A stretch of 64,000 nucleotides of DNA from a plasmid. The position numbers were made by a program, and so were the translations under genes. Under the pieces are notes generated by a model that was given only the letters and a program-made list of their open reading frames with translations, was not told where the DNA came from and made no database searches. The stretch lies in sequence record NZ_CP033968.1; one strand, written 5' to 3'. Shown piece after piece: positions 4,669 to 63,528 of the stretch (positions are counted from its first letter, which is position 1; each line of letters begins with the position of its first letter).

Positions 4669-4785
4669 GTGACCCTCCTAGTAACACGTATGTATATTAT
4701 TGCTGGGGTTGATTGTATATGGATTGTCAAGTTTTGGGGAAGTTACCCCGGGGATGTGTGATACGACTGCGCTGTGTGAGAGCTC

Positions 4786-7037: not shown

Positions 7038-8061
7038 CGTGATTCAGTTCCTTGCAGACCAGATAGACCAGCTCGACCTTGCTCTAGACCAGCTCGCGTT
7101 GCAGGATCGGAACTTTGACCGGTTCGCTATGATGCTGACGGACAATGTCGTCGAACTGACATTGCACCGGCATGCAGAAGACACTCGAGTACTTGAATCG
7201 GATCTGCGCCTTGGGGGCCAGACTCCAGGAATCGATCAGAAGATTGTGTCGGAAGCTTTGGGGGCGAGGTTCGACGGCAAGGTAAAGTTGGCGCGTACGA
7301 CCGGGCTGATTGATGCGGAATTGAGCGCGACGCTGCTTTATCTCCATGGTTTCCGGAATACTGCGTACCACCGCGGTGCCCGGCATGAGGGCGTTCTGCA
7401 TTCGGTTTCGCTCTTCTACGTGCGGTGCGCCTGCGAGATTCTTGCGCGGTACCAGCCCCTTGGGTGGTACTCAGCGAGCGGGGACAAGATCTCGCACCGC
7501 GCTGTGAAGTACCTTGGCTCCATGAAAGGAAAATTGCCAACCGAACCTTTCGGGCGCGCATGGGCCCAGATATCGGAAGTCGCACTGCATCTGGGGGACA
7601 GGCTCGTAGCTGATCTGCACTGCGACATGCAGAAGACTATAGAGACGTTCGCCGAAAGCCTGGGATTGCTTGCGCAGTACCCTGAGCCTGGTGGTACACC
7701 GCGCAGCACTGTGATCATTGAGAGTCAGGTGTGGCACGTTGCCTTTTCGTCCGTGGGGGAAGACTATGCTCGAGTCCACGGTGGACCGACGTCGCCGTCG
7801 GCTGACTACGTGCGCTGGATAGAAGCCAACTTCCCATGGATCGACCGCGTTGACCCGGTTCCGTCGTGGCGAAGGCGAGCCGCCACACTCGCGAAGGAAA
7901 AGAATCCGCATTCGGCCGTTAAGAAGTACTGCGACTTCATGCGGCAGTCTGAAATGTTGCGTGAAGCGATCGATGCGGCTGCTGCTCAGCTCAACGCCCA
8001 TCTGAACAACCTGGTGGATTCGTACCTCGAAGAACAGGCTCTTCAGCGAGGGAAGCCGTGA
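7038..8061 (+). CDS. hypothetical protein; the start is uncertain
   Basis: The body of the ORF reads like a real protein. The track start at 6874 precedes an A-run plus hairpin at 6925-6960, so I chose the GTG at 7038 with an upstream GGGGTGAG; the ATG at 7126 is also possible. Confidence 0.5.
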
Positions 8062-8098
8062 AGGAAAAAAATGAAAACGCCCCTTCGGAAAGGGGCGT
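8062..8098 (-). terminator. rho-independent terminator ending the leftward small-gene operon
   Basis: The hairpin acgccccttcggaaaggggcgt is followed on the minus-strand RNA by a uuuucauuuuuuu tract. Confidence 0.6.
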
Positions 8099-8110
8099 CA
8101 CAGCGGTTGA

Positions 8111-8284
8111 TTAAGCATCCTGAGCGGCGTCGCGCATCAGTGAAGTGGCCTCAGCGTACGAGAGCCCATTGTCACGATAGTAGAGCGCACCCTGATGGAT
8201 GGCGCCGTCGTGGCTGTAGCCTTCCTTGCGGTACTCGAGATACTTGTCGGTTGCCCGAGCGAGCTGTTCGAGGGTGAACTGCAT
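8111..8284 (-). CDS. small hypothetical protein (57 aa), absent from the ORF track because it is under 60 aa
   Basis: Hand translation gives MQFTLEQLARATDKYLEYRKEGYSHDGAIHQGALYYRDNGLSYAEATSLMRDAAQDA. A GAGG lies 6 nt upstream, and the terminator is immediately 3'. Confidence 0.4.
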   Translation of the reverse strand: MQFTLEQLARATDKYLEYRKEGYSHDGAIHQGALYYRDNGLSYAEATSLMRDAAQDA

Positions 8285-13589: not shown

Positions 13590-14180
13590 CTAGCCGAACA
13601 TGTCGCCAAGTTTTTCCAGTGCTTCGAGCGCTACGGGGTCGATGCTCTGGGGGCTCGCCGGCGCCGGATGCGCGGCTGGGACGGTTCCAGGGTTTGCGGC
13701 AACGGCAATGGCAGGGGGCACGATCGTGGCAGGCGTTTCCGCTTCCTCCATACCCTGCGCGAGAAGTGGTTGGATGGGCTCGACCACTGTTTCGCGCAAG
13801 GGTGGTGGTTGCTCCGCCGGCGCCTCTGCTACCGGAGACGGGGTAGCAGGACGGGCAGCCGGCCGGGCTGAAATTGCGCGGGGCTTCAGCACCCTGGCAG
13901 AGCGTCCCTTGGCGCCTCGGCGCACCTGCTTGTCGTGCGGTGCGGATTCGATGAGACCCCCGGGACCAGCCAGTGCCTCCTCAATGGCGTCATCCAATGT
14001 TCCTGCATCCCGGTGCTTGATGAACCACTGATACAGGACGCCCCGGATGAGAGGGGTTTCGGTCCGGTATGGCATTTCTGCGAGGAACTCCAGAGCCCCG
14101 GGGCAGGTTGCCTCCGCGATCACCAGGTTGATGCGCCGCTCCGGTTCGTCTGGGTCGAACACCCGGATGAGCTTAGGCAT
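13590..14180 (-). CDS. hypothetical protein immediately downstream of the parM-like gene; possible ParR-type adaptor
   Basis: The assignment rests on position in a parMR-like arrangement only. There is no motif evidence, and the C-terminal half is Pro/Ala-rich. Confidence 0.45.
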   Translation of the reverse strand: MPKLIRVFDPDEPERRINLVIAEATCPGALEFLAEMPYRTETPLIRGVLYQWFIKHRDAGTLDDAIEEALAGPGGLIESAPHDKQVRRGAKGRSARVLKPRAISARPAARPATPSPVAEAPAEQPPPLRETVVEPIQPLLAQGMEEAETPATIVPPAIAVAANPGTVPAAHPAPASPQSIDPVALEALEKLGDMFG

Positions 14181-15201
14181 CTACGGTTTCCTGTTGGCTC
14201 TGCCGCTTCATCGCTTGGCGCAGCGCCACGCCCATGCCGTAACGGCCGAAGCCATTGGCTACTGACATGCGGGGGTTGTCAAGGAGAATGCAGTGCGACC
14301 ACTTCTTCTTGATTTCCTCATAGAGCAGCGGGGCGCCACCGCCGGCCAGGATCACGCCGTGCAACTTCCGCACGTCCATGGACAGCAAGGAGTCGGCCTT
14401 GGCGTTGATCTTCTGGGCAACGTGCGAGACCGCCTTTGCAACTTCTTCGGAGATGTCGATTTCTTGACCAAACTGCAAAATCGATTTGGTCCGGATCGCG
14501 GTTTCGCACTCGATGAGATTCGAGTGAATCCCGCGGCCATCGAGAATGCGTACCAGATGCTCCGCGGCGAAATTCAGCCCTTCGCATGTGCCGGCGCCGC
14601 GTTCAACGTACTGCCCTTCGAGCATCAGCAGAAAGTCGGTCGTGAAGTGGCCGACTTCGATGACAGCCCAACTCTTCGTCCGCCCGGATGCGTCAGTGAT
14701 ATGACTCCGGATCGGGAGCCCCTTTTCGTCGAGGTAGAAGTCGCAATACGCGCCCATCGGTTGGGGCAGGACCCGCATCTCGGCCTTAACGACACGTTCC
14801 GTGACCTCTTTGAGCCGAGCTTGCTGGGAAGAGAACAAGTTCGCTGGGGTACCGATCACCAGAAGCGGCTTGTCGAGGCCCGGAACCCCCATGGCTTCAA
14901 AGCGCTTCATGGTCGAGGCGACCAACACCTGGTACTCGGGGGTGTTGATCCAGTCGTTCGACAGGCCGGCATTGGCGCCGGGGCTGCCCTGCAACCGAGC
15001 AGTGTCGCCCGTGAAGAACTGCTTTCCCTCGATTTCGACGGTTTCGATGGCGGCTCGTCGAGCGGTCGTCTCGTCGGAGATCCCGATGGCGGGCGAGACG
15101 ATGGAGGGGAAGGTGAGGGGGTAGGACTCGCCTTGGGCAAAGGCGACGGCCTTGACGGCGCTACGGCCCACGTCGAGGCCAATGATGGTTTGGGTCAGCA
15201 T
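14173..15201 (-). CDS. parM: actin-like segregation ATPase (ParM/StbA family)
   Basis: The N-terminus IIGLDVGRSAVKAV is the phosphate-1 motif of actin-fold ATPases, and the protein is of ParM size. I chose the internal start MLTQTIIGLDVG; the track ORF extends to 15345. Confidence 0.75.
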   Translation of the reverse strand: MLTQTIIGLDVGRSAVKAVAFAQGESYPLTFPSIVSPAIGISDETTARRAAIETVEIEGKQFFTGDTARLQGSPGANAGLSNDWINTPEYQVLVASTMKRFEAMGVPGLDKPLLVIGTPANLFSSQQARLKEVTERVVKAEMRVLPQPMGAYCDFYLDEKGLPIRSHITDASGRTKSWAVIEVGHFTTDFLLMLEGQYVERGAGTCEGLNFAAEHLVRILDGRGIHSNLIECETAIRTKSILQFGQEIDISEEVAKAVSHVAQKINAKADSLLSMDVRKLHGVILAGGGAPLLYEEIKKKWSHCILLDNPRMSVANGFGRYGMGVALRQAMKRQSQQETVDA

Positions 15202-15436
15202 GAAATTCTCACAGTGCAGAGTCGAAAAGGCCCCGCAACCGGGGCCGGCCACCGATGCGCAATCCGCTGTGCGCAATGTGTACTGCTCATTGTTCACTGC
15301 AGATACCGCACCTGTTACGCGTCCGCATTTTAGAATACATAACACGTATTGACAAGACGACTGTAGCGAACGGAGAATTGCCCCCCCGGGGTTGTTTACG
15401 CAATGTGATAAGCAACCCCCAAAGGACGCTTAATAC
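15202..15436. promoter_or_regulatory. divergent control region upstream of parM; candidate centromere/promoter
   Basis: It contains direct repeats of GCGCAATGTG/ACGCAATGTGA, two G/C hairpins, and the AACACGTATTGACAAG motif. Confidence 0.35.
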
Positions 15437-15961
15437 ATGGTGCGTAACCAACCCCCCGAGATCGACGATTTTGCAGTTGCCCTGACCGCGGCCCGAAAGG
15501 CGGTCGAGGAGACGGAAAACCTTATCCGAATCATTGATTCAACCCTCGAACGTATTGATTCCCTGATGTACGTGATGCAGCCGTTTCAGTCCGGCCGAAT
15601 TGGCATAAAGCGGGTGTTCAGTAACGGGAGATTGCGCTGGCAAGTGCGAATCTTTCGGCAGCTCCGTAGCCGCAAGTGGGTCTCCTCGTTTGCGAGCCAC
15701 AAGGGGTTGCGGCGCCGCGTGAAGCGTTCCCGGGAGTGGGAGGCAAACTACAAGTTCCTGCAGTTGCTCTGCGATCGAGTCACCCTGCTGTTTGAGTTGC
15801 GGTCGCAAGCGGTGGACCGGCTCTGGCGTTTCTCGCATGGATCGACCCGTTCCACCAGGGCCCGAGAGGCTGCGATAAGCGACACGGTCGCCCTAGTGGA
15901 CGGGCTGCTGGAGCGGATCGAGGCACGGTTCGAAGGCGATATGGAACTTGAGGACGAATAG
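15437..15961 (+). CDS. hypothetical protein (174 aa)
   Basis: AAAGGA lies upstream of the ATG. The ORF is clean, ends in an acidic tail, and has no recognised motif. Confidence 0.5.
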   Translation: MVRNQPPEIDDFAVALTAARKAVEETENLIRIIDSTLERIDSLMYVMQPFQSGRIGIKRVFSNGRLRWQVRIFRQLRSRKWVSSFASHKGLRRRVKRSREWEANYKFLQLLCDRVTLLFELRSQAVDRLWRFSHGSTRSTRAREAAISDTVALVDGLLERIEARFEGDMELEDE

Positions 15962-17522
15962 GCTAAGCGGGATCAATGCCGACCAAGGCCCTGGTGCAGA
16001 GACTGTGCCGGGGCTTTTTCTTTATGGGTAGCGAGTGTCTCGGCCGGGCCGGATATTGGGCGAAGATTGGATTGAGGCGGACGTAGAGGAGATAGCTGCC
16101 AGGCGGAGGTCCTGTGGGGAGTCGGGATTTCTGCCACGCGGGGTATTGGGCGGAGGGAGTCCTGGGCTCTGTGCGATGGGAGACGGGACTGGCTCTGGCG
16201 GGATCTCGGGTTTGGCCTGTTCTGCGGCTTTGCGTAGTGCGCTGTTCTGCGGGCGGGTGGATGGGCTGGTTGTCTCACTCTGCCGACCGGTGGTCGTTCT
16301 CTCGCCTGCGCGGGTGTCCGCCTTGTTCCCTTGTTCTCTCTCTGTCCGATTGGGCGGCCGGTGGTCCTGTGCTTGTTGCGGTGGGGCGGGGAGGTAGCCG
16401 GCGATGGCTTGGTGCGGAGTGAGCTTGGGCGCGGAGTGAGAACTTCGGTTGGCGGTGGCTTGGGTTTGGTGTCCCTCGGCGGCCCGTGGTCCGCCGGAGG
16501 CTTTGGTGTCGCCGGCGCATCAGCGCGGGCCCCGTGAGGGGCTATGGTTCTGCCGACGGGATAACTATTTGTCCTGCCGGGGCTCGTTCTGGTGGTGTGC
16601 GGGCTGGGCTTGTGCGCCCTCCTGCGTCGGGGTTGTTGCGCCGCCGTGAGCATAACCATTTGTCCTCTTCCTTCCTTGTGTCGCCGCGGGATCTCGCTCC
16701 CTGTTCTTCCTGAGAGCCGGGTGCGCTGCTGCTGTCCTGCTGCCGGGGCGGGATTGGGCTGCTCCTTCTTGCCCGGTCATCTCTCACCGGAACTGTGGAT
16801 GGGATCGAATGGATCTAATGGATGAAGGGGAGGGGCGGCCGGTGTCGTTCTGCCGATGGCGTGTCGGGGAGCCGGGTGGATCTGTCGGCGGGGCGGAGGT
16901 CTTGGGCTGGGGTGGTTGTTCTGCTGGCGTGGGAATGGTGCTGGTGGTGGATGGTTGTGGCGCTGGGTGGCTGGTTCTGTCGGCGGGGGATCGGGTGGAG
17001 CGGCGTTGTGCTGGCGGGAGACTGATGGTGTTGGTTCTGAGAGTGGCGGCGGTGCGGTGGTGGTGTCAGGCGGAGTGAGAAGTTTCGCTGGCGATGGTGC
17101 GAGAGAAGTCGGGTATGAGCTCGGATCGAGTGGGGCTGGTGTATCGGCAGGCGATGGCGTGGGTGAAGTCGGGTATGGGCGGGGCGGGGGCGGGAGATTG
17201 GCTGGCGATGGCGTGTTGCGGTGTGGTTGTTGGGCAGGCGGTTGTTTTGGCCGTGTGGGGGAGGGCTGGCGTACCTGGTGCCGTAGCCGCCGGCGCCGTG
17301 GGGGCGACGCCCGGCGAAGCCGGGCTGGGGTGTTGCCCCGGGGTAAATGTTTGGCCGGAGGGCTTCTCTTGGGCGCTCCCCTGTGGGTAAATGGTTGCCC
17401 CTGCTACCGGGTTCTATGACCGGCGTCGGTGAGTAAATGCTTGGCCGTTGCTGTTTCGCTGGTCTGGGTGCGGTGTATGTTGGTGTTGCTCTACCCATGC
17501 GTAACACGTATGCATAATTTGC
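15962..17522 (+). repeat. ~1.5 kb non-coding GT-skewed repeat-rich tract
   Basis: The top strand is roughly 50% G, 30% T, 13% C and 5% A. Imperfect direct repeats include GCGATGG(C/T)G at least 5 times, gttctg(c/t)(c/g)g at least 6 times, ATAAC(T/C)ATTTGTCCT twice and GTAAATGNTTG(G)CC four times. Only low-complexity P/R/H- or G/W-rich ORFs occur in any frame. Confidence 0.55.
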
Positions 17523-17551
17523 TTGATTGATCTAAGTACTGTGCGTATGAT
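17523..17551 (+). promoter_or_regulatory. sigma70-like promoter for the membrane/helicase operon
   Basis: TTGATT and TATGAT are separated by 17 bp, just after the AACACGTAT motif. Confidence 0.45.
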
Positions 17552-17588
17552 GGGTATAAATGGTTGGCCACATATGAAGGGGTATGAG

Positions 17589-17858
17589 ATGCGTACGAAG
17601 GTGAAGGTTGGTCTGATGATTGGAGGTGTCGTGCTGGTAGCAGCGGCGATCGTGCTGGCGCCCGTGCTGCGCGACCTGCCTTGGCTGAAGTGGACCCTGT
17701 ACGTGTGCGCTGCACTGATGCTGTCCCCGCTGTTCATGGGCGGTCTCGTGGACGTGCCCGCCACCACCCCGGAAGATCCGACCTTCGAAAAGAATCGCAT
17801 CGGCGATGCAAGGCAGGACGTCTGGGGGTTCAACGGCCAAGACAGCAACAACGACTAA
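17589..17858 (+). CDS. small membrane protein (89 aa)
   Basis: GAAGGGG lies 8 nt upstream. The N-terminus MRTKVKVGLMIGGVVLVAAAIVLA is followed by a second hydrophobic segment. Confidence 0.5.
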   Translation: MRTKVKVGLMIGGVVLVAAAIVLAPVLRDLPWLKWTLYVCAALMLSPLFMGGLVDVPATTPEDPTFEKNRIGDARQDVWGFNGQDSNND

Positions 17859-17893
17859 GCGCGGCGAAACTGGAAAGGATGAAAGGGGTCGAG

Positions 17894-19687
17894 ATGAGCA
17901 AGGCTACGCACGAACAACTTACCGCGATCAACAGCGCCGTCCGTCGCCTGGTGGTCCAGGCCTGCCCGGGTGCCGGCAAGACGTTCACCCTGAGGGAGTA
18001 CGCCCTGGTGCGTCCCTCGGAGCGCATCCTGTACCTCACCTACACGAAGTCTCTCCAGACTGAAGCCGAGGGCAAGTTCCCCCAGAACGTCGAATGCCGC
18101 ACCACTCACTCCCTTGCGTGGTCGTTCGGCCGTCGCTTCAAGGACGCCGGTAAGCTGGGCGACCTGCGCCCGAGCGACTTCGCCCGCGCCTTCGGCATCG
18201 AGATCGGCTTTGCCAGTATCCTGGTGACGACTGTCACGAGCTTTCTGTTCTCCGCGGATACCGACTTCGAGCCGCACCATGTGCCGGACACGATCGCCGA
18301 GGCAGATGTCGCTGAGACCCTGAAGTGGGGCCGGCTCGCTTGGGAGGCCATGCAGGATCTCGGCCGCAAGAACGTTCCCATGCCCCATGACGGCTATCTC
18401 AAGCTGTTCCAGCTTTCGAAGCCGGACCTGTCGCGTCGCTACGATCGCATCCTGTTCGACGAAGGCCAGGACGCCAACCCGGTCACGACCTCGATCGTTC
18501 TTGCCCAGAATTGCCCTGTGGTGATCGTCGGCGACCGGTATCAGGCGATCTTTGCCTTCCGGGGTGCCGTCAATGCCATGGACATGATCCAACCGGATGA
18601 AACGGTCTACCTCACCCAGAGCCATCGCTTCGGCCCTGGCATTGCCCGGCTGGCCACGATGCTCCTCTCCGCGTTCCGCGGCGAAGAGCGACCTGTGTAC
18701 AGTGCCTTCCCGGATCGGCCGACTGGCTACACGGTCGACGTTTCCAAGCCGTACGCGGTCATCGGCCGCACGAACGCCAAGCTGTTCGACAAGGCTGTCG
18801 CCATGCTGGGCAACAAGCGTCTGCACTTTGTCGGTGGGCTCAGTAATTACCCATTTGACAAGTTGGTGGACGTTTGGAACCTGATGAGCGGCCAGCCGGC
18901 CGCCGTCAAGGACCAGTTGCTCAAGACCTTTGGTTCGCTGGAGAAGCTCGAGGAGTACGCGACGGGCGTTGACGACAAGGAGATTCTCTCCCTGATCGGT
19001 GTGGTGAAGGAGTACCGCAGCGCGATCCCGTCGCTGGTCGAGAGGATCAAGGCGGAAGCAGTGGAACAAGCAGAGCACGCTGACGTTCTGCTCTCGACGG
19101 CCCATCGTGCGAAGGGTCTCGAATTCAGCCAGGTACTGCTGCTCGACGACTTTGAAGACTTCGTCACGGCCAATGGCGAGCTGCTGACTCTGGATACGCC
19201 CGAACTGGTCCAGGAACTGCACCTGCTGTTCGTGGCACTCACCCGAGCCGAGGACGTTATCGAGCTCAACGCCCAGATGCAGGACATCATCGCGATCCTA
19301 GGGGATCGCGTGCCTGAAGCTCAGCCAACCCCGGGCGAGAGGAGCACCGAACAAGTGGGGGAGCAGCTTGGCCAGATTCCGGGTTTTGATTACGTGCCGG
19401 TTGTGTATACGTGTGATGTAGCGGAAAATGTCACACGTGAACAAAAGGCACCGGTGGTCGCGCTGGCGCAAGTGCCGGTTGGTGCTGGCACTGACATTGA
19501 GAAATCGGTGGAGCTGGCGATCCTCCGGCAAGGCCTCCTCCACGTTCCGCGGCTGGCGCAAGAGGTTGGCGTGAGCCGCGAGGTGATGGCGGATGTCATC
19601 GTCGAGATGATCCGGAAGGGCCTGCTGGCCGAGTCGCTCTTCCTGGGTAGCCCGGAAGTAGTCAGCCGGCTGCGGGTGGCTGCGTGA
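17894..19687 (+). CDS. SF1 UvrD/Rep-like DNA helicase
   Basis: It carries Walker A GAGKT, a DEGQD box and QSHRFG, and is UvrD-like throughout. AAAGGGG lies 8 nt upstream of the ATG at 17894; the track ORF from 17681 overlaps the previous gene. Confidence 0.8.
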   Translation: MSKATHEQLTAINSAVRRLVVQACPGAGKTFTLREYALVRPSERILYLTYTKSLQTEAEGKFPQNVECRTTHSLAWSFGRRFKDAGKLGDLRPSDFARAFGIEIGFASILVTTVTSFLFSADTDFEPHHVPDTIAEADVAETLKWGRLAWEAMQDLGRKNVPMPHDGYLKLFQLSKPDLSRRYDRILFDEGQDANPVTTSIVLAQNCPVVIVGDRYQAIFAFRGAVNAMDMIQPDETVYLTQSHRFGPGIARLATMLLSAFRGEERPVYSAFPDRPTGYTVDVSKPYAVIGRTNAKLFDKAVAMLGNKRLHFVGGLSNYPFDKLVDVWNLMSGQPAAVKDQLLKTFGSLEKLEEYATGVDDKEILSLIGVVKEYRSAIPSLVERIKAEAVEQAEHADVLLSTAHRAKGLEFSQVLLLDDFEDFVTANGELLTLDTPELVQELHLLFVALTRAEDVIELNAQMQDIIAILGDRVPEAQPTPGERSTEQVGEQLGQIPGFDYVPVVYTCDVAENVTREQKAPVVALAQVPVGAGTDIEKSVELAILRQGLLHVPRLAQEVGVSREVMADVIVEMIRKGLLAESLFLGSPEVVSRLRVAA

Positions 19688-23513: not shown

Positions 23514-23549
23514 CATACGTGTTATTAATCTATTTTCAGGATTGCGGCG

Positions 23550-54280: not shown

Positions 54281-55720
54281 TCAAGCGAACGGAGCGTCGA
54301 TCGGCATCTTCCTGAGCAACGTTGTGGTCAGCGAGAAATAACCCCCCTCCAGGCGCGGGGCGTAGTCACGCACCCATTGCGCTGCGAGAGGCGAGCGGAG
54401 CGCGGCCTCGACTCGATCAAGCACGCCAGGCTCACCGCACACGATGCTCAGGTTGTGGTTGATCGGCAGAATGCCGGGCGGGACGCGCACGGCCTTAGGC
54501 GACGTGGCGATCCGCGGCACGAGCAATGTCTCGCGGGACAGATCCATGCGGTGAAAGGTCTCCGGCGGTAGCCAGAAGGTACCCCGCCGGCCCCGTGCCG
54601 CCATCTTGTGCATATGGCGCTGCAAGTGCTCAATCAGGCGATTGCACGGCGTCACACCAGGCGCCGTCCTGATGGCGAATCGCCGCGGCGTGCAAAGGCG
54701 GCCGTCGACAATGTCATCGGTGTCGACCGCTGGCACCAGGTACTCGCCCGGCAGCGTCGCGGCCGTTTCTTTGTCCACCACAAAGATCCCGGAAGAGCCG
54801 AGCCATGGTGCGATGCGTACCTGGGCGAACTGTTCCAGCGTTGGAAGGCCTTCATAACGGCTTTCGTCGACGCCTGGATAGATTGGCCGCTCCGTAAGCA
54901 CGCGAAAATCGTGCGAACGCTGCGGAGGCTCGGCCGTCGCCTTCAGCACGACAGACACAGGGTGAACCCGCGGGGGCGTGCCCGAGCGACGGTTCTTCGG
55001 GCGATAGAACACCGAGCTTGAATCCAACCGTTCAAGGTGGGAAATGGCAAGCCGGGTCCCTAAGGTCGCGCGAAGTTCCGCGGCCCCGGCATTCAGGAGC
55101 CAACGATCGGCAGTTACAAACCCGATCTGACCATCCGGATGAATGGCACGACTGCAACGCTCCAGGAAGCTATGCAGAAGATCTTTCGCAGCGAAATCCG
55201 GGACATGGCCGGAATAGAGGTCCTGCAGAACGGGCGGGACGTTGACCCAGCGCAGGTAGGGCGGATTGCCGGCGACAACGTGATAGACGGCCGTTTGCGG
55301 CCCGTCAGTCAGGAAATCCCGGTTATGGACCATCGACTCGGCCACTTTGGTGGCAGTCGCGTGGTCATAGCCATGTCGGCACAGCGTAGCTGCGACACGT
55401 GCACGCGCCTCGATGCACGCGCCTGCGTGCACCTCCCAGCCCTCGACTTGCGCCAGCAGACTGGCGCTTGTTAGGCGCGAGTGCTTGCTGGCTGCAAGGA
55501 GCTTTCCAAGGGCACGCTCAAGGAACATGCCGTCACCGCAGCTCGGGTCGACCAGCCGGCGCCCATCCCGAGGCCAGTCAAGCCGCCCAAGGAGTTGGTC
55601 CACCACCGGCCCCGCGGTATAGATCGCCGTCGCCTGGTGCAGTCGCTCAACCGCTTCTGCTCGAGCCTGATCAATTTGGCTGTGCTGTGACTGCCGATAC
55701 TCAGTGATTTCGGTCTGCAT
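54281..55720 (-). CDS. N6-adenine DNA methyltransferase (gamma-class; N-terminal catalytic domain followed by a long TRD-like region)
   Basis: Motif I is DPSCGDGMFL and motif IV is GNPPY. The start is the internal ATG (MQTEITEY) with GGGAAA upstream; the track begins at a GTG at 55849. Confidence 0.8.
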   Translation of the reverse strand: MQTEITEYRQSQHSQIDQARAEAVERLHQATAIYTAGPVVDQLLGRLDWPRDGRRLVDPSCGDGMFLERALGKLLAASKHSRLTSASLLAQVEGWEVHAGACIEARARVAATLCRHGYDHATATKVAESMVHNRDFLTDGPQTAVYHVVAGNPPYLRWVNVPPVLQDLYSGHVPDFAAKDLLHSFLERCSRAIHPDGQIGFVTADRWLLNAGAAELRATLGTRLAISHLERLDSSSVFYRPKNRRSGTPPRVHPVSVVLKATAEPPQRSHDFRVLTERPIYPGVDESRYEGLPTLEQFAQVRIAPWLGSSGIFVVDKETAATLPGEYLVPAVDTDDIVDGRLCTPRRFAIRTAPGVTPCNRLIEHLQRHMHKMAARGRRGTFWLPPETFHRMDLSRETLLVPRIATSPKAVRVPPGILPINHNLSIVCGEPGVLDRVEAALRSPLAAQWVRDYAPRLEGGYFSLTTTLLRKMPIDAPFA

Positions 55721-56095
55721 TGTGTTTCCCGGAGGGCCGGGCGGATCTCCCGCCCGGTGCATTCCTGTTGCGTTAGGAAGCCTTATCGGCATCGGCGAAT
55801 GGCTCCGGCACGGCTTCATAGCGGTGCGCTTGACCTCGGAGTGCGGCACCTTGGTTCCCGCAGCTCACGAGTGTCTGTGCCAAGTTTGGGTCTAGGACGT
55901 CGTCACGAACCAACACGCGCTCGCCATTCGCTTCGATAAGCCAGATTTCGTACACGTAGTGCGCCCCCTCTCTCTATGCAGAGCTCTGGCAAGGACAAAA
56001 CGATCAGCCGACAGGCCGGTGGATGTCTGCCGCTCTCACTCTGGCGACGATTTTGCGTATGATATAGTATAGATACGTGTTACGTATCGAAGCGT

Positions 56096-61589: not shown

Positions 61590-61845
61590 GCCCCTGGCCC
61601 CACTGCATGGGCAGCTTTCTCCGTTTGGGCCCGATAGCATCTACCGAATACCACCGACGCAATCGCGTCATCCCGAAGTGACAACGTCGACCGTGTACCG
61701 GCTGTTACGCCGGCGCAGTGAGTATTGGTAGAATTTGTCAAAAGTACATAAAACGTGCATCGGGAGGATTTCGAGTGCAGGATTTTCAGGGAAGCGTTGG
61801 CCGGCTCGGCGGCCTGGTGGGGGCAGTAGGACTGGGGTCGAAGTG

Positions 61846-63528
61846 ATGGGTGGCCCTGTCGTGCTTGTCGACTTCGAGAATGTGCAGGCGATCGATTTTG
61901 GGCGGCTAGCGCCGGACACCCGCATCGCCGTGTTCGCGGGCGAGCTGCAGCGGAAAGTACCGATCGAGGTGGCCATGGGGCTGCAGGAGATGGGGGAGCG
62001 CGCTCGCTGGGTGCGCTCGAGCGGCACCGGTCCAAACGCACTTGACTTTCATATTGCCTTCGAGCTCGGCCGAATGGCGCAGGCTGGTGAGCAGGGACCG
62101 GTGGTGGTCCTGTCTCGGGACAAGGGCTTTGATCCGCTACTCGATTGGCTCCGGACTCAGCACGGAATCCCCGCCAGCCGTGTTACGACCATCGCAGAAG
62201 CATTCGGATACACTCCAGACGCCCCATACGCGCCGCAGGCAGCAGAGCCGATTGTGGTTGACTTTGGGGCCGTGACGCCGGCGCCAAGGCCGACGCAACC
62301 GGCCTTGCAGAGCAATGGCATGCATGTCGCGGAACCGCATTTCATGCGATCCCTTCAGGCAGAGGCAAGCAGCGTGGTTCCAAGGTCGGTACCCCAGGCA
62401 GTGCCTGTGCCGGCGAGCAAAGCGGTTGGCGCCAGTGGCGCGATGCACAGTACAGAAAAGCGCCGCCTTCGTTGGTACCAGCAGACTCTCAGGCGGGCTG
62501 GCGTCCTTGAGCGTGTCGAGGGTGAGAGGGGGGTTTGGAAGCTCGCCGATGCGGCGAGCAAGGATCTGTGCAAGGCGCAGGCGACGACGAAACTGGTTGC
62601 CTTCAGTACAGATCTCGGCGTCGCAATATGGAGCAAGGCCGAAAGCACCTTCCCCAGTTTTGACGAGCCGATCGCGCTCGTGGTCACTTCGACTCCATAT
62701 CCATTGAGACGGCCGCGTGCGTACGGGAACCCGACGGAGGCCGATTTCGTTGACTTCATCTGCCATGCTGTAGAGCCGATTGCCAAAAATCTGATCCCGG
62801 GCGCCTCAGTGATATTGAACATTGGCCTGGATATCTTCGAGGAAGGGAGCCCGGCGCGTTCTCTTTACCCTGAACGGCTTACTCTGGCCCTGCGCGATCG
62901 ACTCGGATTGAGCCTTATGGACCGCATCCCCTGGGTGAACTACTCGAAGCCGCCGGGCCCCACGTACTGGGCCTGTGTGAAGCGGGTCCAGCTCTCCGCC
63001 GCATATGAGCAGGTGCTCTGGCTGACAAACGATCCAATGAGGGTCCGATCCGATAACCGGCGCGTACTTGAACCGCATACAGATCGACACTTGGAGCTCA
63101 TGCAGAGCGGCGGCGCCAACCGGACTGCAGTCTACGGGGACGGAGCATACCGACTGCGGCCAAACTCCTTTGGCAAGGTCACTTCCGGCAAGATTCCGCG
63201 AAACGTCATAGAGCGCGGTCATGCCTGTTCGGACACACGCGCCTATCGCCAGCATGCGAAGGCGCTTGGCCTTCCGATTCACGGCGCCATGCAGCCGACC
63301 GATATCGCGGACTTCTTTATCCGCCTCTGCACAGAACCTGGTGAGTTGGTGGTTGACCTCTTTGCCGGGACCGTGAAGACGGGGCTGGCAGCAGAACGCC
63401 TGGGCAGGCGGTGGCTGGTGACCGAAATGATGCTCTCCTACCTCCGAGGTGCGGCGGAGATGTTCCGCGGTGCGCCTGGATTCGATCTCAATCCTGCGCT
63501 CGAGTGTGTCGGTGGGATGCGCAGCTGA
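61846..63528 (+). CDS. NYN-domain (PIN-like RNase fold) protein fused to a beta-class N4/N6 DNA methyltransferase
   Basis: The N-terminus VVLVDFENV is an NYN domain. Motif IV TSTPY precedes motif I VVDLFAGTVKTGLAAERLGRRWLVTE, which is the beta-class order. The start ATG overlaps the stop of a 23-aa upstream ORF (tgATG) that has GGGAGGA as its RBS. Confidence 0.75.
   Translation: MGGPVVLVDFENVQAIDFGRLAPDTRIAVFAGELQRKVPIEVAMGLQEMGERARWVRSSGTGPNALDFHIAFELGRMAQAGEQGPVVVLSRDKGFDPLLDWLRTQHGIPASRVTTIAEAFGYTPDAPYAPQAAEPIVVDFGAVTPAPRPTQPALQSNGMHVAEPHFMRSLQAEASSVVPRSVPQAVPVPASKAVGASGAMHSTEKRRLRWYQQTLRRAGVLERVEGERGVWKLADAASKDLCKAQATTKLVAFSTDLGVAIWSKAESTFPSFDEPIALVVTSTPYPLRRPRAYGNPTEADFVDFICHAVEPIAKNLIPGASVILNIGLDIFEEGSPARSLYPERLTLALRDRLGLSLMDRIPWVNYSKPPGPTYWACVKRVQLSAAYEQVLWLTNDPMRVRSDNRRVLEPHTDRHLELMQSGGANRTAVYGDGAYRLRPNSFGKVTSGKIPRNVIERGHACSDTRAYRQHAKALGLPIHGAMQPTDIADFFIRLCTEPGELVVDLFAGTVKTGLAAERLGRRWLVTEMMLSYLRGAAEMFRGAPGFDLNPALECVGGMRS

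Follow-up and report, generated by a model that had tools for sequence, protein, structure and literature searches.

A repeat-built non-coding tract upstream of a helicase operon on proteobacterial megaplasmids is probably a cis-acting site

What could be the function of a stretch of plasmid DNA that annotation pipelines leave blank, that is built almost entirely from degenerate repeats, and that nevertheless keeps its place between the same genes in plasmids of different genera? We asked this question for positions 15962-17522 of a 64-kb window, that is, of the whole stretch of DNA that was analysed (64,000 nucleotides of the plasmid sequence record NZ_CP033968.1). The window is part of a Cupriavidus megaplasmid of the pMOL30 family with the replicon type rep_cluster_332. 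The tract lies between a gene for a conserved protein of 174 aa, here called ORF174, and an operon that consists of a small membrane open reading frame (ORF) and a helicase gene, followed by further genes. An original prediction, made from the letters of the sequence, had described the tract as non-coding and rich in repeats and had suggested either an iteron-type replication origin or another cis-acting site, such as a centromere or a helicase loading site, or else a long structured RNA. Because the tract is non-coding, repeat-built and conserved, we consider it probably a cis-acting site rather than a gene, and this part of the suggestion holds. Concerning the type of site, we prefer, with a probability of roughly 0.4, the reading that the tract would be a protein-binding scaffold combined with an operator region which controls the helicase operon.

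Conservation, composition and repeats of the tract

Over its full length, the tract is 99.9% identical to a region of the C. metallidurans BS1 plasmid p1 and 98.0-98.6% identical to regions of three other Cupriavidus megaplasmids. In the near-identical record BS1 p1, the gap between the gene of the hypothetical 174-aa protein and the 270-nt gene preceding the helicase is not annotated. A comparison with other plasmids had been proposed as a check on conservation, and we found the same layout in 14 tracts from at least eight lineages, which belong to Cupriavidus, Ralstonia, Burkholderia/Caballeronia, Methylibium and Pseudomonas. At every locus inspected, parM and a ParR-like gene on the - strand are followed by ORF174 on the + strand, the gap, the small membrane ORF and a UvrD-like helicase gene. 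The gap is unannotated and has a length of 1.6-2.35 kb. Its plan comprises the terminator of ORF174, a first repeat segment (segment I), the sequence AGCATAACCATTTGT, a second repeat segment (segment II), three to four operator-like boxes, and a promoter with a box over the transcription start. Between genera, only islands can be aligned, namely the ORF174 terminator, a central core of about 195 nt, the box region and the promoter. We found no phage relatives of the tract, no analogous tract upstream of the related helicases in an IncC plasmid or in Polaromonas pPNAP01, and no description of it in the searched literature on these plasmid families and on GT-rich leading regions.

The module co-occurs with four replicon clusters (332, 219, 402 and 398) and with MOBP or MOBF relaxases. 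On the other hand, pMOL30 and two related records have the same replicon type as the window and match only the last 118 nt of the region, with the promoter and boxes 3 and 4 (positions 7635-8184 of the pMOL30 locus, L002, against 17444-17561 of the window); parM, ORF174 and the tract are missing there. Judging from the alignment, this state is a natural deletion or replacement with an end point inside the box array. The parA, parB and repA genes of pMOL30 are found at 1-4.8 kb, with repA about 12 kb from the helicase operon.

The claim that the tract is non-coding is supported by its indel spectrum, by the absence of codon periodicity and by open frames that are as long as the composition predicts. 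In pairwise alignments of related tracts (79-98% identity), the length of 47 out of 56 indels is not divisible by 3 and the substitutions are spread evenly over the three phases; in the ORF174 and helicase genes, by contrast, indels are absent and third positions have changed 3-10 times more often. The five Cupriavidus copies are separated by two 1-nt homopolymer indels. The longest open frame in the tract has 267 aa, compared to a mean of 256 in shuffled sequences. A protein gene on either strand is ruled out by these indels, by the lack of a 3-nt periodicity and by the open-frame length, which equals the expectation from composition. The Prokaryotic Genome Annotation Pipeline (PGAP) leaves the gap without annotation in all RefSeq relatives. 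Older GenBank annotations and metagenome gene callers have placed hypothetical ORFs of 180-351 aa, on either strand, in homologous tracts (L004 5390-6982, L005 5928-6983, L012 6272-6811, L023 5825-6514 and L025 6139-7140). These calls are spurious, because the composition of the tracts is poor in stop codons.

We then compared the rate of change in the tract with neutral references, for which we used the four-fold degenerate sites of the flanking genes or, for the Cupriavidus set, codon position 3. Between the window and L025, a relative with 69% identity in ORF174, substitutions affect 19-22% of the tract and 35-46% of the four-fold sites of three flanking genes. The corresponding values are 21-22% against 30% for P. 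veronii and P. koreensis, and 3.4-5.2% against 9.5% for the plasmids of G4 and Caballeronia. In the set of five Cupriavidus plasmids, segment I has 2 variable columns out of 589 and segment II has 3.1% variable columns, compared to 8-10.6% for codon position 3; between the boxes, the spacers vary at about 11% of their positions. In summary, four of the five comparisons show a tract that evolves below the synonymous rate, at 0.03-0.7 times its value (the fifth is discussed below). Overall, the alignments indicate that the tract is under moderate purifying selection on its sequence, while its length evolves through indels.

The composition of the tract is unusual for the window. Its base frequencies are A 0.100, C 0.224, G 0.424 and T 0.252, and the averages of the whole window are A 0.198, C 0.283, G 0.313 and T 0.206. 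A top strand with about 50% G, 30% T and almost no A had been reported; this description approximates positions 16800-17100 (G 0.50-0.52, A 0.10-0.11, with T at about 0.24), but not the tract as a whole. The minimum of A in a 300-nt window is 5%, and nowhere else in the 64 kb does A stay under 12% over more than two successive 300-nt windows (here, there are 27 of them in a row). The skew reaches +0.58 for GC and -0.68 for AT, and the G+C content is 61-69% throughout. Segment I (16028..16536, + strand) consists of degenerate direct repeats in one orientation and is poor in A and rich in G and T (A 0.09, C 0.24, G 0.42, T 0.25). Segment II (16667..17335, + strand; G 0.47, C 0.20) is the most G-rich array of degenerate direct repeats and contains CTGGCG/CAGGCG and GGAGTGAG motifs. 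Across lineages, segment I has 620-975 nt and is G/T-rich in beta-proteobacterial plasmids and C/T-rich in Pseudomonas, and segment II has 600-880 nt and is G-rich everywhere, most extremely in Ralstonia (56% G, 9% C). The + strand of all gaps contains 4-15% A. A regional mutational skew as the cause of this pattern was ruled out using the four-fold degenerate sites of the flanking genes, at which A is about as frequent as T and, in genes on the + strand, G about as frequent as C. The skew is local, and the tract has more T and less C than these sites.

To count repeat motifs, we used 1000 dinucleotide shuffles of the tract as a reference. Two motifs for which at least five and at least six copies had been claimed, GCGATGG[CT]G and GTTCTG[CT][CG]G, are indeed enriched (expected 0.11 and 0.13), but they occur only three and five times, respectively. 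Furthermore, GTTCTG alone is found 8 times (expected 1.05) and GCTGGCG 5 times (expected 0.94). The predicted pair of ATAAC[TC]ATTTGTCCT sites is present at 16561 and 16652, 91 bp apart, with a shuffle expectation of 0, and the repeated unit reported near 17087 exists as well; it has 34 nt, with copies at 17087 and 17147 that are 82% identical. As for a reported GGA-rich patch, the number of GGA trinucleotides does not differ from chance (40 compared to 35 +/- 4), but there is a repeat of the 9-nt sequence GGATCGAAT at 16802-16823.

When the tract of the window is aligned with itself, we obtain 16 direct high-scoring segment pairs (HSPs), about five times the number in block-wise shuffles (2.9 +/- 1.6), and no inverted ones. 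In every lineage tested, direct self-HSPs are 5-18 times more frequent than in block-wise dinucleotide shuffles, and inverted ones are essentially missing. The repeats are degenerate, have a single orientation, are specific to their lineage and have units of about 30-95 nt; the repeat families D3, D7, D8 and D11 tie segment I to segment II. In Burkholderiaceae, we see a recurring degenerate unit, GGGCGGAGTGAG-N8-CTGGCGGGGGATTGG, with a spacing near multiples of about 31 nt in G4-type plasmids. A profile hidden Markov model (HMM) of this unit, built from repeat units of Burkholderia G4 and Cupriavidus TMH.W2, matches the window tract 10 times (0.8 +/- 0.8 in shuffles), the Ralstonia tract 18 times and that of a metagenomic relative 8 times (less than 1 in shuffles), in all three on the + strand only; the matches in segment I are found at gap positions 68-470. 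The units differ in Pseudomonas, pM7012 and Methylibium. We were not able to find a regular periodicity or an iteron phasing: the autocorrelation peaks, at 17 and at about 31, 62 and 93 nt, are weak and limited to some beta-proteobacterial lineages. A 65-nt block of segment II, directly to the right of the central sites described below (16749-16815, GCTCCTTCTTGCCCGGTCATCTCTCACCGGAAC...GGATGGGATCGAATGGATC), is conserved in Burkholderiaceae: it is nearly identical in L025, and its first part is partly kept in TMH.W2, Ralstonia and G4-type plasmids. The 9-nt GGATCGAAT repeat belongs to this block.

Close relatives are separated by indels of 56-155 nt, and pXWY carries a recent tandem duplication of 77 nt. 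The arrays turn over by local duplication and deletion, a process that probably propagates the strand asymmetry. Since the repeats are direct, have one orientation and turn over by duplication and deletion, the asymmetry is at least partly a compositional footprint of one-directional repeat amplification.

Boxes, central sites and the promoter of the helicase operon

Four boxes had been noticed immediately upstream of the promoter of the membrane-protein/helicase operon. We find that they are genuine sites that are conserved across lineages; however, only three of them precede the -35 element, and the fourth is located just after the -10 element. The promoter itself, TTGATT-17-TATGAT at 17523..17551 (+ strand), is sigma-70-like and was found with a promoter scan; in the alignment of several lineages, its -35 and -10 columns are conserved. 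Boxes 1-3 have the form GGGTAAATG(T/G/C)TTG(G/C)CC and are located at 17341-17356, 17385-17400 and 17431-17446 on the + strand, with spacings of 44 and 46 bp. Box 4, GTATAAATGGTTGGCC (17554..17569, + strand), follows directly after the -10 element and covers the expected transcription start. The sequence GTAAATGNTTGGCC, common to the four boxes (at 17343, 17387, 17433 and 17556), does not occur anywhere else in the window.

In the other lineages, the right end of the tract likewise has three to four copies of the consensus (C/G)(A/T)TAAATGGTTG, about 45 bp apart. For example, in Pseudomonas they start about 197, 152 and 107 nt upstream of the start codon of the small ORF, with similar offsets in other lineages, and a further box is found about 27 nt before this codon, directly after the -10 element. 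The enrichment of the box core TAAATGGTT across lineages reaches about 230-fold. Each box is an imperfect palindrome, of the form GGNTAA-ATGG-TTGNCC in Burkholderiaceae and of the form GCATAA-ATGG-TTGTGC in Pseudomonas. The flanks of the boxes thus vary between lineages while the core is kept, as would be expected of an operator that co-evolves with a dimeric DNA-binding protein encoded by the plasmid.

Related sites are found in the middle of the tract. A central operator-like cluster (16537..16666, + strand) consists of two units of the form GGGCTATGGT..N..ATAAC(T/C)ATTTGTCC, with the sites at 16561-16575 and 16649-16666. The sequence AGCATAACCATTTGT at 16649-16663 is invariant from Cupriavidus to Pseudomonas, that is, from beta- to gamma-proteobacterial plasmids. 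All 14 tracts contain one to three central sites ATAAC(C/T)ATTTGT on the + strand. These sites correspond to the box palindrome with its middle 4 bp inverted, and they lie 0.6-0.9 kb farther upstream. At the level of sequence, the tract therefore has both palindromic sites over a promoter and related sites at a distance, which is the arrangement of an operator array. As far as predicted elements can tell, the right-hand 250 nt of the tract are thereby shown to be the promoter and operator region of the membrane-ORF/helicase operon. Farther inside the tract, the promoter scan found no sigma-70-like promoter, and no promoter is conserved there on either strand.

A second motif, TAACACGTA, is located close to this promoter (17502..17510, + strand) and is shared with four other promoter-like regions of the window. 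In total it occurs five times in the window, compared to 0.07 expected: at 4682-4690 (+), 15340-15348 (+), 17502-17510 (+), 23516-23524 (-) and 56074-56082 (-). Each copy adjoins a promoter-like element, either an extended -10 of the TGnTATAAT type or a TTGACA. Among these regions are the divergent promoter of parM and ORF174 and the promoter of the helicase operon, and the copy at the latter is kept in all lineages. On this pattern, TAACACGTA probably marks a plasmid-wide regulon.

Possible functions of the tract

How could the boxes, the central sites and the repeat arrays work together? According to the reading that we prefer, a dimeric DNA-binding protein encoded by the plasmid would bind to the boxes and repress the helicase operon, and the remote central sites could strengthen this repression by looping of the DNA. 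The operon would then be tightly silenced in established cells and expressed in a burst upon entry into a new host. The repeat arrays, on the other hand, would form a scaffold free of promoters, to which a second factor would bind in many copies and which could act as a titration device or as an architectural platform. ORF174 would be the obvious candidate for this second factor, because its gene always adjoins the tract.

Several observations weigh against this reading. Binding to duplex DNA needs no strand asymmetry, yet the excess of T over A is kept in both segments and in every lineage; that it is kept beyond alignable sequence hints at a strand-specific constraint. The 45-bp spacing of the boxes corresponds to 4.3 helical turns, such that the boxes do not lie on one face of the helix. 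We found no recognisable DNA-binding domain in ORF174 and no candidate repressor with such a domain among the proteins scanned. We also tried to interpret the repeat units as weak copies of the boxes and rejected this idea: half-box motifs are enriched only 1.8-2.9 times when pooled, and not at all in Pseudomonas. Finally, two of the rate comparisons are less favourable than the others. In the fifth pair, pHN39-SIM and pSTY, the tract differs at 19-23.5% of positions and the reference at 22%, which is approximately neutral, and the near-invariance of segment I, which is seen in Cupriavidus only, may partly reflect recent recombination.

The main alternative, which we consider unlikely, is that the tract would be a strand-specific single-strand element. 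Its G/T-rich + strand would be single-stranded, whether displaced or bound by protein, and might form part of an R-loop or a platform for helicase loading or priming; ORF174 could possibly be a PC4/Pur-alpha-like binder of the G strand, and the element could serve establishment, replication restart or recombination. Such an element would explain why T exceeds A in both segments and G exceeds C in segment II in all lineages, despite a complete turnover of the sequence. The local rise of T and fall of C relative to four-fold sites resembles the C-to-T signature of an exposed + strand. Furthermore, the complementary, minus-sense strand would be almost unstructured (-11 to -25 kcal/mol per 200 nt, z up to +2), and CTG, the trinucleotide recognised by the E. 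coli DnaG primase, is enriched 1.2-1.6 times in 10 of 10 tracts tested. A part of the predicted ORF174 structure, a beta-meander, weakly and locally resembles PC4 and Pur-alpha. The host UvrD has been reported to act in the conversion of transferred plasmid DNA from single to double strands (PMC10085688).

The G-rich strand also has the orientation of a non-template strand with respect to the transcription of both ORF174 and the operon. On the other hand, we found no promoter from which transcription would enter the tract, and there is a strong intrinsic terminator in front of it. In Pseudomonas, segment I is C/T-rich and not R-loop-prone in the same sense, and in pBVIE01 there is no relaxase or oriT within 50 kb rightward. 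That the tract represents a new class of large (1.3-2.3 kb), strand-asymmetric, non-coding megaplasmid elements acting at the level of single strands is, in our estimate, rather unlikely. The many G runs had also been thought to form G-quadruplexes, but this potential does not exceed what the composition predicts: there are 2 canonical motifs compared to 1.8 expected, and 23 runs of at least four G compared to 29 expected. Other tracts have 0-3 such motifs, and runs of at least four G are under-represented in all 12 that were tested.

Could the tract body, on the contrary, be an inert, expanded satellite or spacer, which inherits its skew by duplication, with only the boxes and the promoter being functional? 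The lineage-specific units and the long indels between close relatives would be in line with this, and so would the near-synonymous divergence of the pHN39-SIM and pSTY tracts and the fact that pMOL30 is viable without a tract. However, beta- and gamma-proteobacterial plasmids alike have kept a tract of 1.3-2.3 kb that is divided into two segments, and the divergence is below the synonymous one in the other four comparisons. Moreover, bacterial genomes are known to be biased towards the deletion of unused DNA. We regard an inert spacer as a doubtful explanation.

The long structured RNA mentioned in the original prediction is not supported. A long non-coding RNA, either G/U-rich in sense or C/A-rich in antisense orientation, might act as a sponge or regulator; this would fit a sequence constraint that is spread over more than 1 kb and a conserved strand asymmetry, and one Pseudomonas plasmid has a promoter-like site on the minus strand at the right edge of the tract. 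However, a search of both strands of 15000-18500 against Rfam gave nothing at E<=1, and the folding z-scores of 200-nt windows on the + strand are about 0 in three lineages, with only the ORF174 terminator standing out. For the whole tract the folding z-scores are inconsistent (-4.0 in the window, +1.7 in pHN39-SIM). A giant hairpin between segments I and II was considered and rejected, since the pairing between the segments is below that of shuffled sequences. In the best-conserved 290 nt, RNAalifold gave a covariation term of +6.5, which is a penalty, although the power of this test, with five Burkholderiaceae sequences, is limited. Together with the lack of a conserved promoter on either strand and of an enrichment in GGA, these results make a long RNA improbable.

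Even less probable is a cluster of polar motifs that proteins of the host would read, for example an island of Chi-like sites that would halt RecBCD, or an array of KOPS-like sites that would give FtsK its direction; the orientation of such a cluster would protect the replicon side or direct processing towards it. The heptamer GCTGGCG is one base off both the E. coli Chi (GCTGGTGG) and the Pseudomonas Chi (GCTGGCGC), and it may not be the Chi of Burkholderiaceae. It is found 3-7 times per tract, always on the + strand, in most beta-proteobacterial lineages (in Methylibium 0 times), and its density in the window tract is about nine times that in the rest of the window. However, the Pseudomonas Chi GCTGGCGC, which has been defined experimentally (PMC5959072), is not enriched in the five Pseudomonas tracts (0, 0, 0, 1 and 2 occurrences), GCTGGCG is part of a longer repeat unit, and the KOPS-like GGGNAGGG is found only 0-2 times per tract. 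Outside the tract, GCTGGCG is distributed 21:12 and GGGNAGGG 10:1 in favour of the + strand. The latter is a polarity of the leading-strand type, and it suggests that the + strand could be the leading strand across the window.

Finally, direct repeats and box-like sites in non-coding DNA beside a helicase gene do recall an iteron-type or other vegetative replication origin, but we can practically dismiss this possibility: the tract is naturally absent from pMOL30 (and two related records), which speaks against a need for it in replication, the module occurs with four replicon types, the 64-kb window has no rep gene, the tract (G+C 61-69%) has no A+T-rich unwinding element, sites similar to DnaA boxes are not above chance (one with 1 mismatch in the tract; 3 in the whole window compared to 6 expected), and units of about 30-95 nt and boxes 45 bp apart are not phased iterons of 17-22 bp.

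Neighbouring genes and known systems

The flanks are as they had been described, a ParM-type segregation gene on one side and a superfamily 1 (SF1) helicase on the other, to which we add ORF174 between parM and the tract and the small membrane ORF before the helicase. ORF174 (15437..15961, + strand) is always found directly upstream of the tract. That it is coding follows from the substitution pattern at third codon positions and from the lack of indels. A tblastn search located it on 26 plasmids of PLSDB, and further copies, on a Ralstonia plasmid and on metagenomic contigs, came from a search at the protein level. Across 9 homologues, 48 columns are invariant, and the protein has no match in Pfam or PDB. 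The AlphaFold2 (AF2) model (predicted local distance difference test, pLDDT, 83) consists of a long helix, a beta-meander plus helix, and a second long helix. With Foldseek, the beta-meander weakly and locally matches PC4 homologues and Pur-alpha, with a probability of 0.72 over 50 residues. A terminator scan identified the intrinsic terminator of ORF174, a 15-pair stem followed by a T-run, at 15985..16027 (+ strand). The conservation of this block between Cupriavidus and Burkholderia is 83%, and the alignment with L025 shows it intact.

At the 5' end of ORF174, a C-rich motif occurs twice, as TAAGCAACCCCC at 15409 and as TAACCAACCCCC at 15445, the copies being 36 nt apart. The TAACCAACCCCC copy falls in codons 3-7 of ORF174, and a complementary GGGGTTGTTTACGCA is found at 15388 (region 15388-15456). 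A duplication with a distance of 36-37 nt at this place is also seen in the Pseudomonas, Burkholderia and Methylibium relatives. From the predicted pairing, the ribosome-binding site and the start codon may be covered by alternative hairpins.

Upstream of parM, at 15202-15300, there are palindromic repeats of the TGCGCAAT type; four lineages have palindromic or lineage-specific tandem repeats there. From their position, these repeats are probably the true parC. A centromere of parM in the tract, on the other hand, is unlikely, since ORF174 and its terminator intervene and parM has repeats of its own upstream. On the 3' side of parM, an ORF of 196 aa (13590-14180, - strand) has, by eye, an N-terminus similar to ribbon-helix-helix (RHH) proteins (RRINLVI) and an acidic C-terminal tail, and this manual inspection makes it probably ParR.

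On the other side of the tract, the small membrane ORF (17589-17858, + strand) is the first gene of the operon, followed by the UvrD-like SF1 helicase (17894-19687, + strand), which matches the Pfam domains UvrD-helicase and UvrD_C and is annotated as such in BS1 p1. The operon heads a run of about 26 kb of co-oriented genes, most of them hypothetical. Elsewhere in the window we see genes similar to N6-adenine methylases, one Eco57I-like and one fused to a PIN domain, for which no restriction partner was noted, and also a YqaJ-type exonuclease (the loci are 54281-55849 on the - strand, 61735-63528 on the + strand and 1270-2298 on the - strand). With about 45 co-oriented small genes, the methylases and the exonuclease, the region resembles an establishment or anti-defence region.

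The module is found in environmental megaplasmids for catabolism or metal resistance of Cupriavidus, Ralstonia, Burkholderia and Methylibium, and also in Pseudomonas megaplasmids from clinical sources. For one of these, pHN39-SIM, the name alone suggests a SIM carbapenemase. Current annotation pipelines leave 1.3-2.3 kb blank at these loci and older ones add spurious ORFs. That the position, the two-part plan and the strand bias are kept over two proteobacterial classes despite the turnover of the sequence points to an unrecognised cis-acting function in maintenance or establishment. Together with the TAACACGTA motif, the boxes offer a direct handle on the regulatory network of a backbone that consists mostly of hypothetical genes. 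A tempting misreading can also be corrected: the tract resembles an iteron origin, but it is most probably not one.

How does the tract compare with known systems? Plasmid centromeres can be arrays of direct repeats, such as the 12 x 43 bp of sopC in F or the 10 x 11 bp of parC in R1, which flank the parMR promoter. The tract is likewise a non-coding array of direct repeats beside a partition gene, and its repeats flank a promoter as in parC. However, it is 3-10 times longer, its units are degenerate and without internal inverted repeats, a gene and a terminator separate it from parM, and the flanked promoter is that of the helicase operon. Iteron arrays are found in origins and copy-control loci, for example oriV of RK2 or incA of P1, and the clusters of direct repeats in the tract could similarly bind or titrate a plasmid protein; unlike them, the tract comes without a Rep gene, an A+T-rich element or DnaA boxes, pMOL30 can do without it, and it is present irrespective of the replicon type. 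What the repeat body has in common with centromeres and iteron arrays is limited to its being non-coding and made of direct repeats; the defining features of both that we tested are missing.

A more distant parallel are the immunoglobulin class-switch regions, G-rich repeat tracts that form R-loops. Here, the likeness is in degenerate tandem repeats on a kilobase scale and in a G-rich strand that has a fixed orientation to the neighbouring transcription. Our tract differs in that it is bacterial and borne by plasmids, has a terminator before it and no promoter reading into it, and has a C/T-rich segment I in Pseudomonas.

For the operator region, the closest comparison is the repression by looping with remote auxiliary operators in the lac, gal and deo operons, and the repeated repressor sites at the establishment and maintenance promoters of R388. 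As in these systems, imperfect palindromes are found around and over a promoter, with related sites several hundred bp upstream, and the distance of 0.6-0.9 kb falls within the range of the deo operators. What sets the tract apart is that its sites are 45 bp apart and that the DNA between the remote sites and the promoter is itself a conserved, strand-skewed array of repeats.

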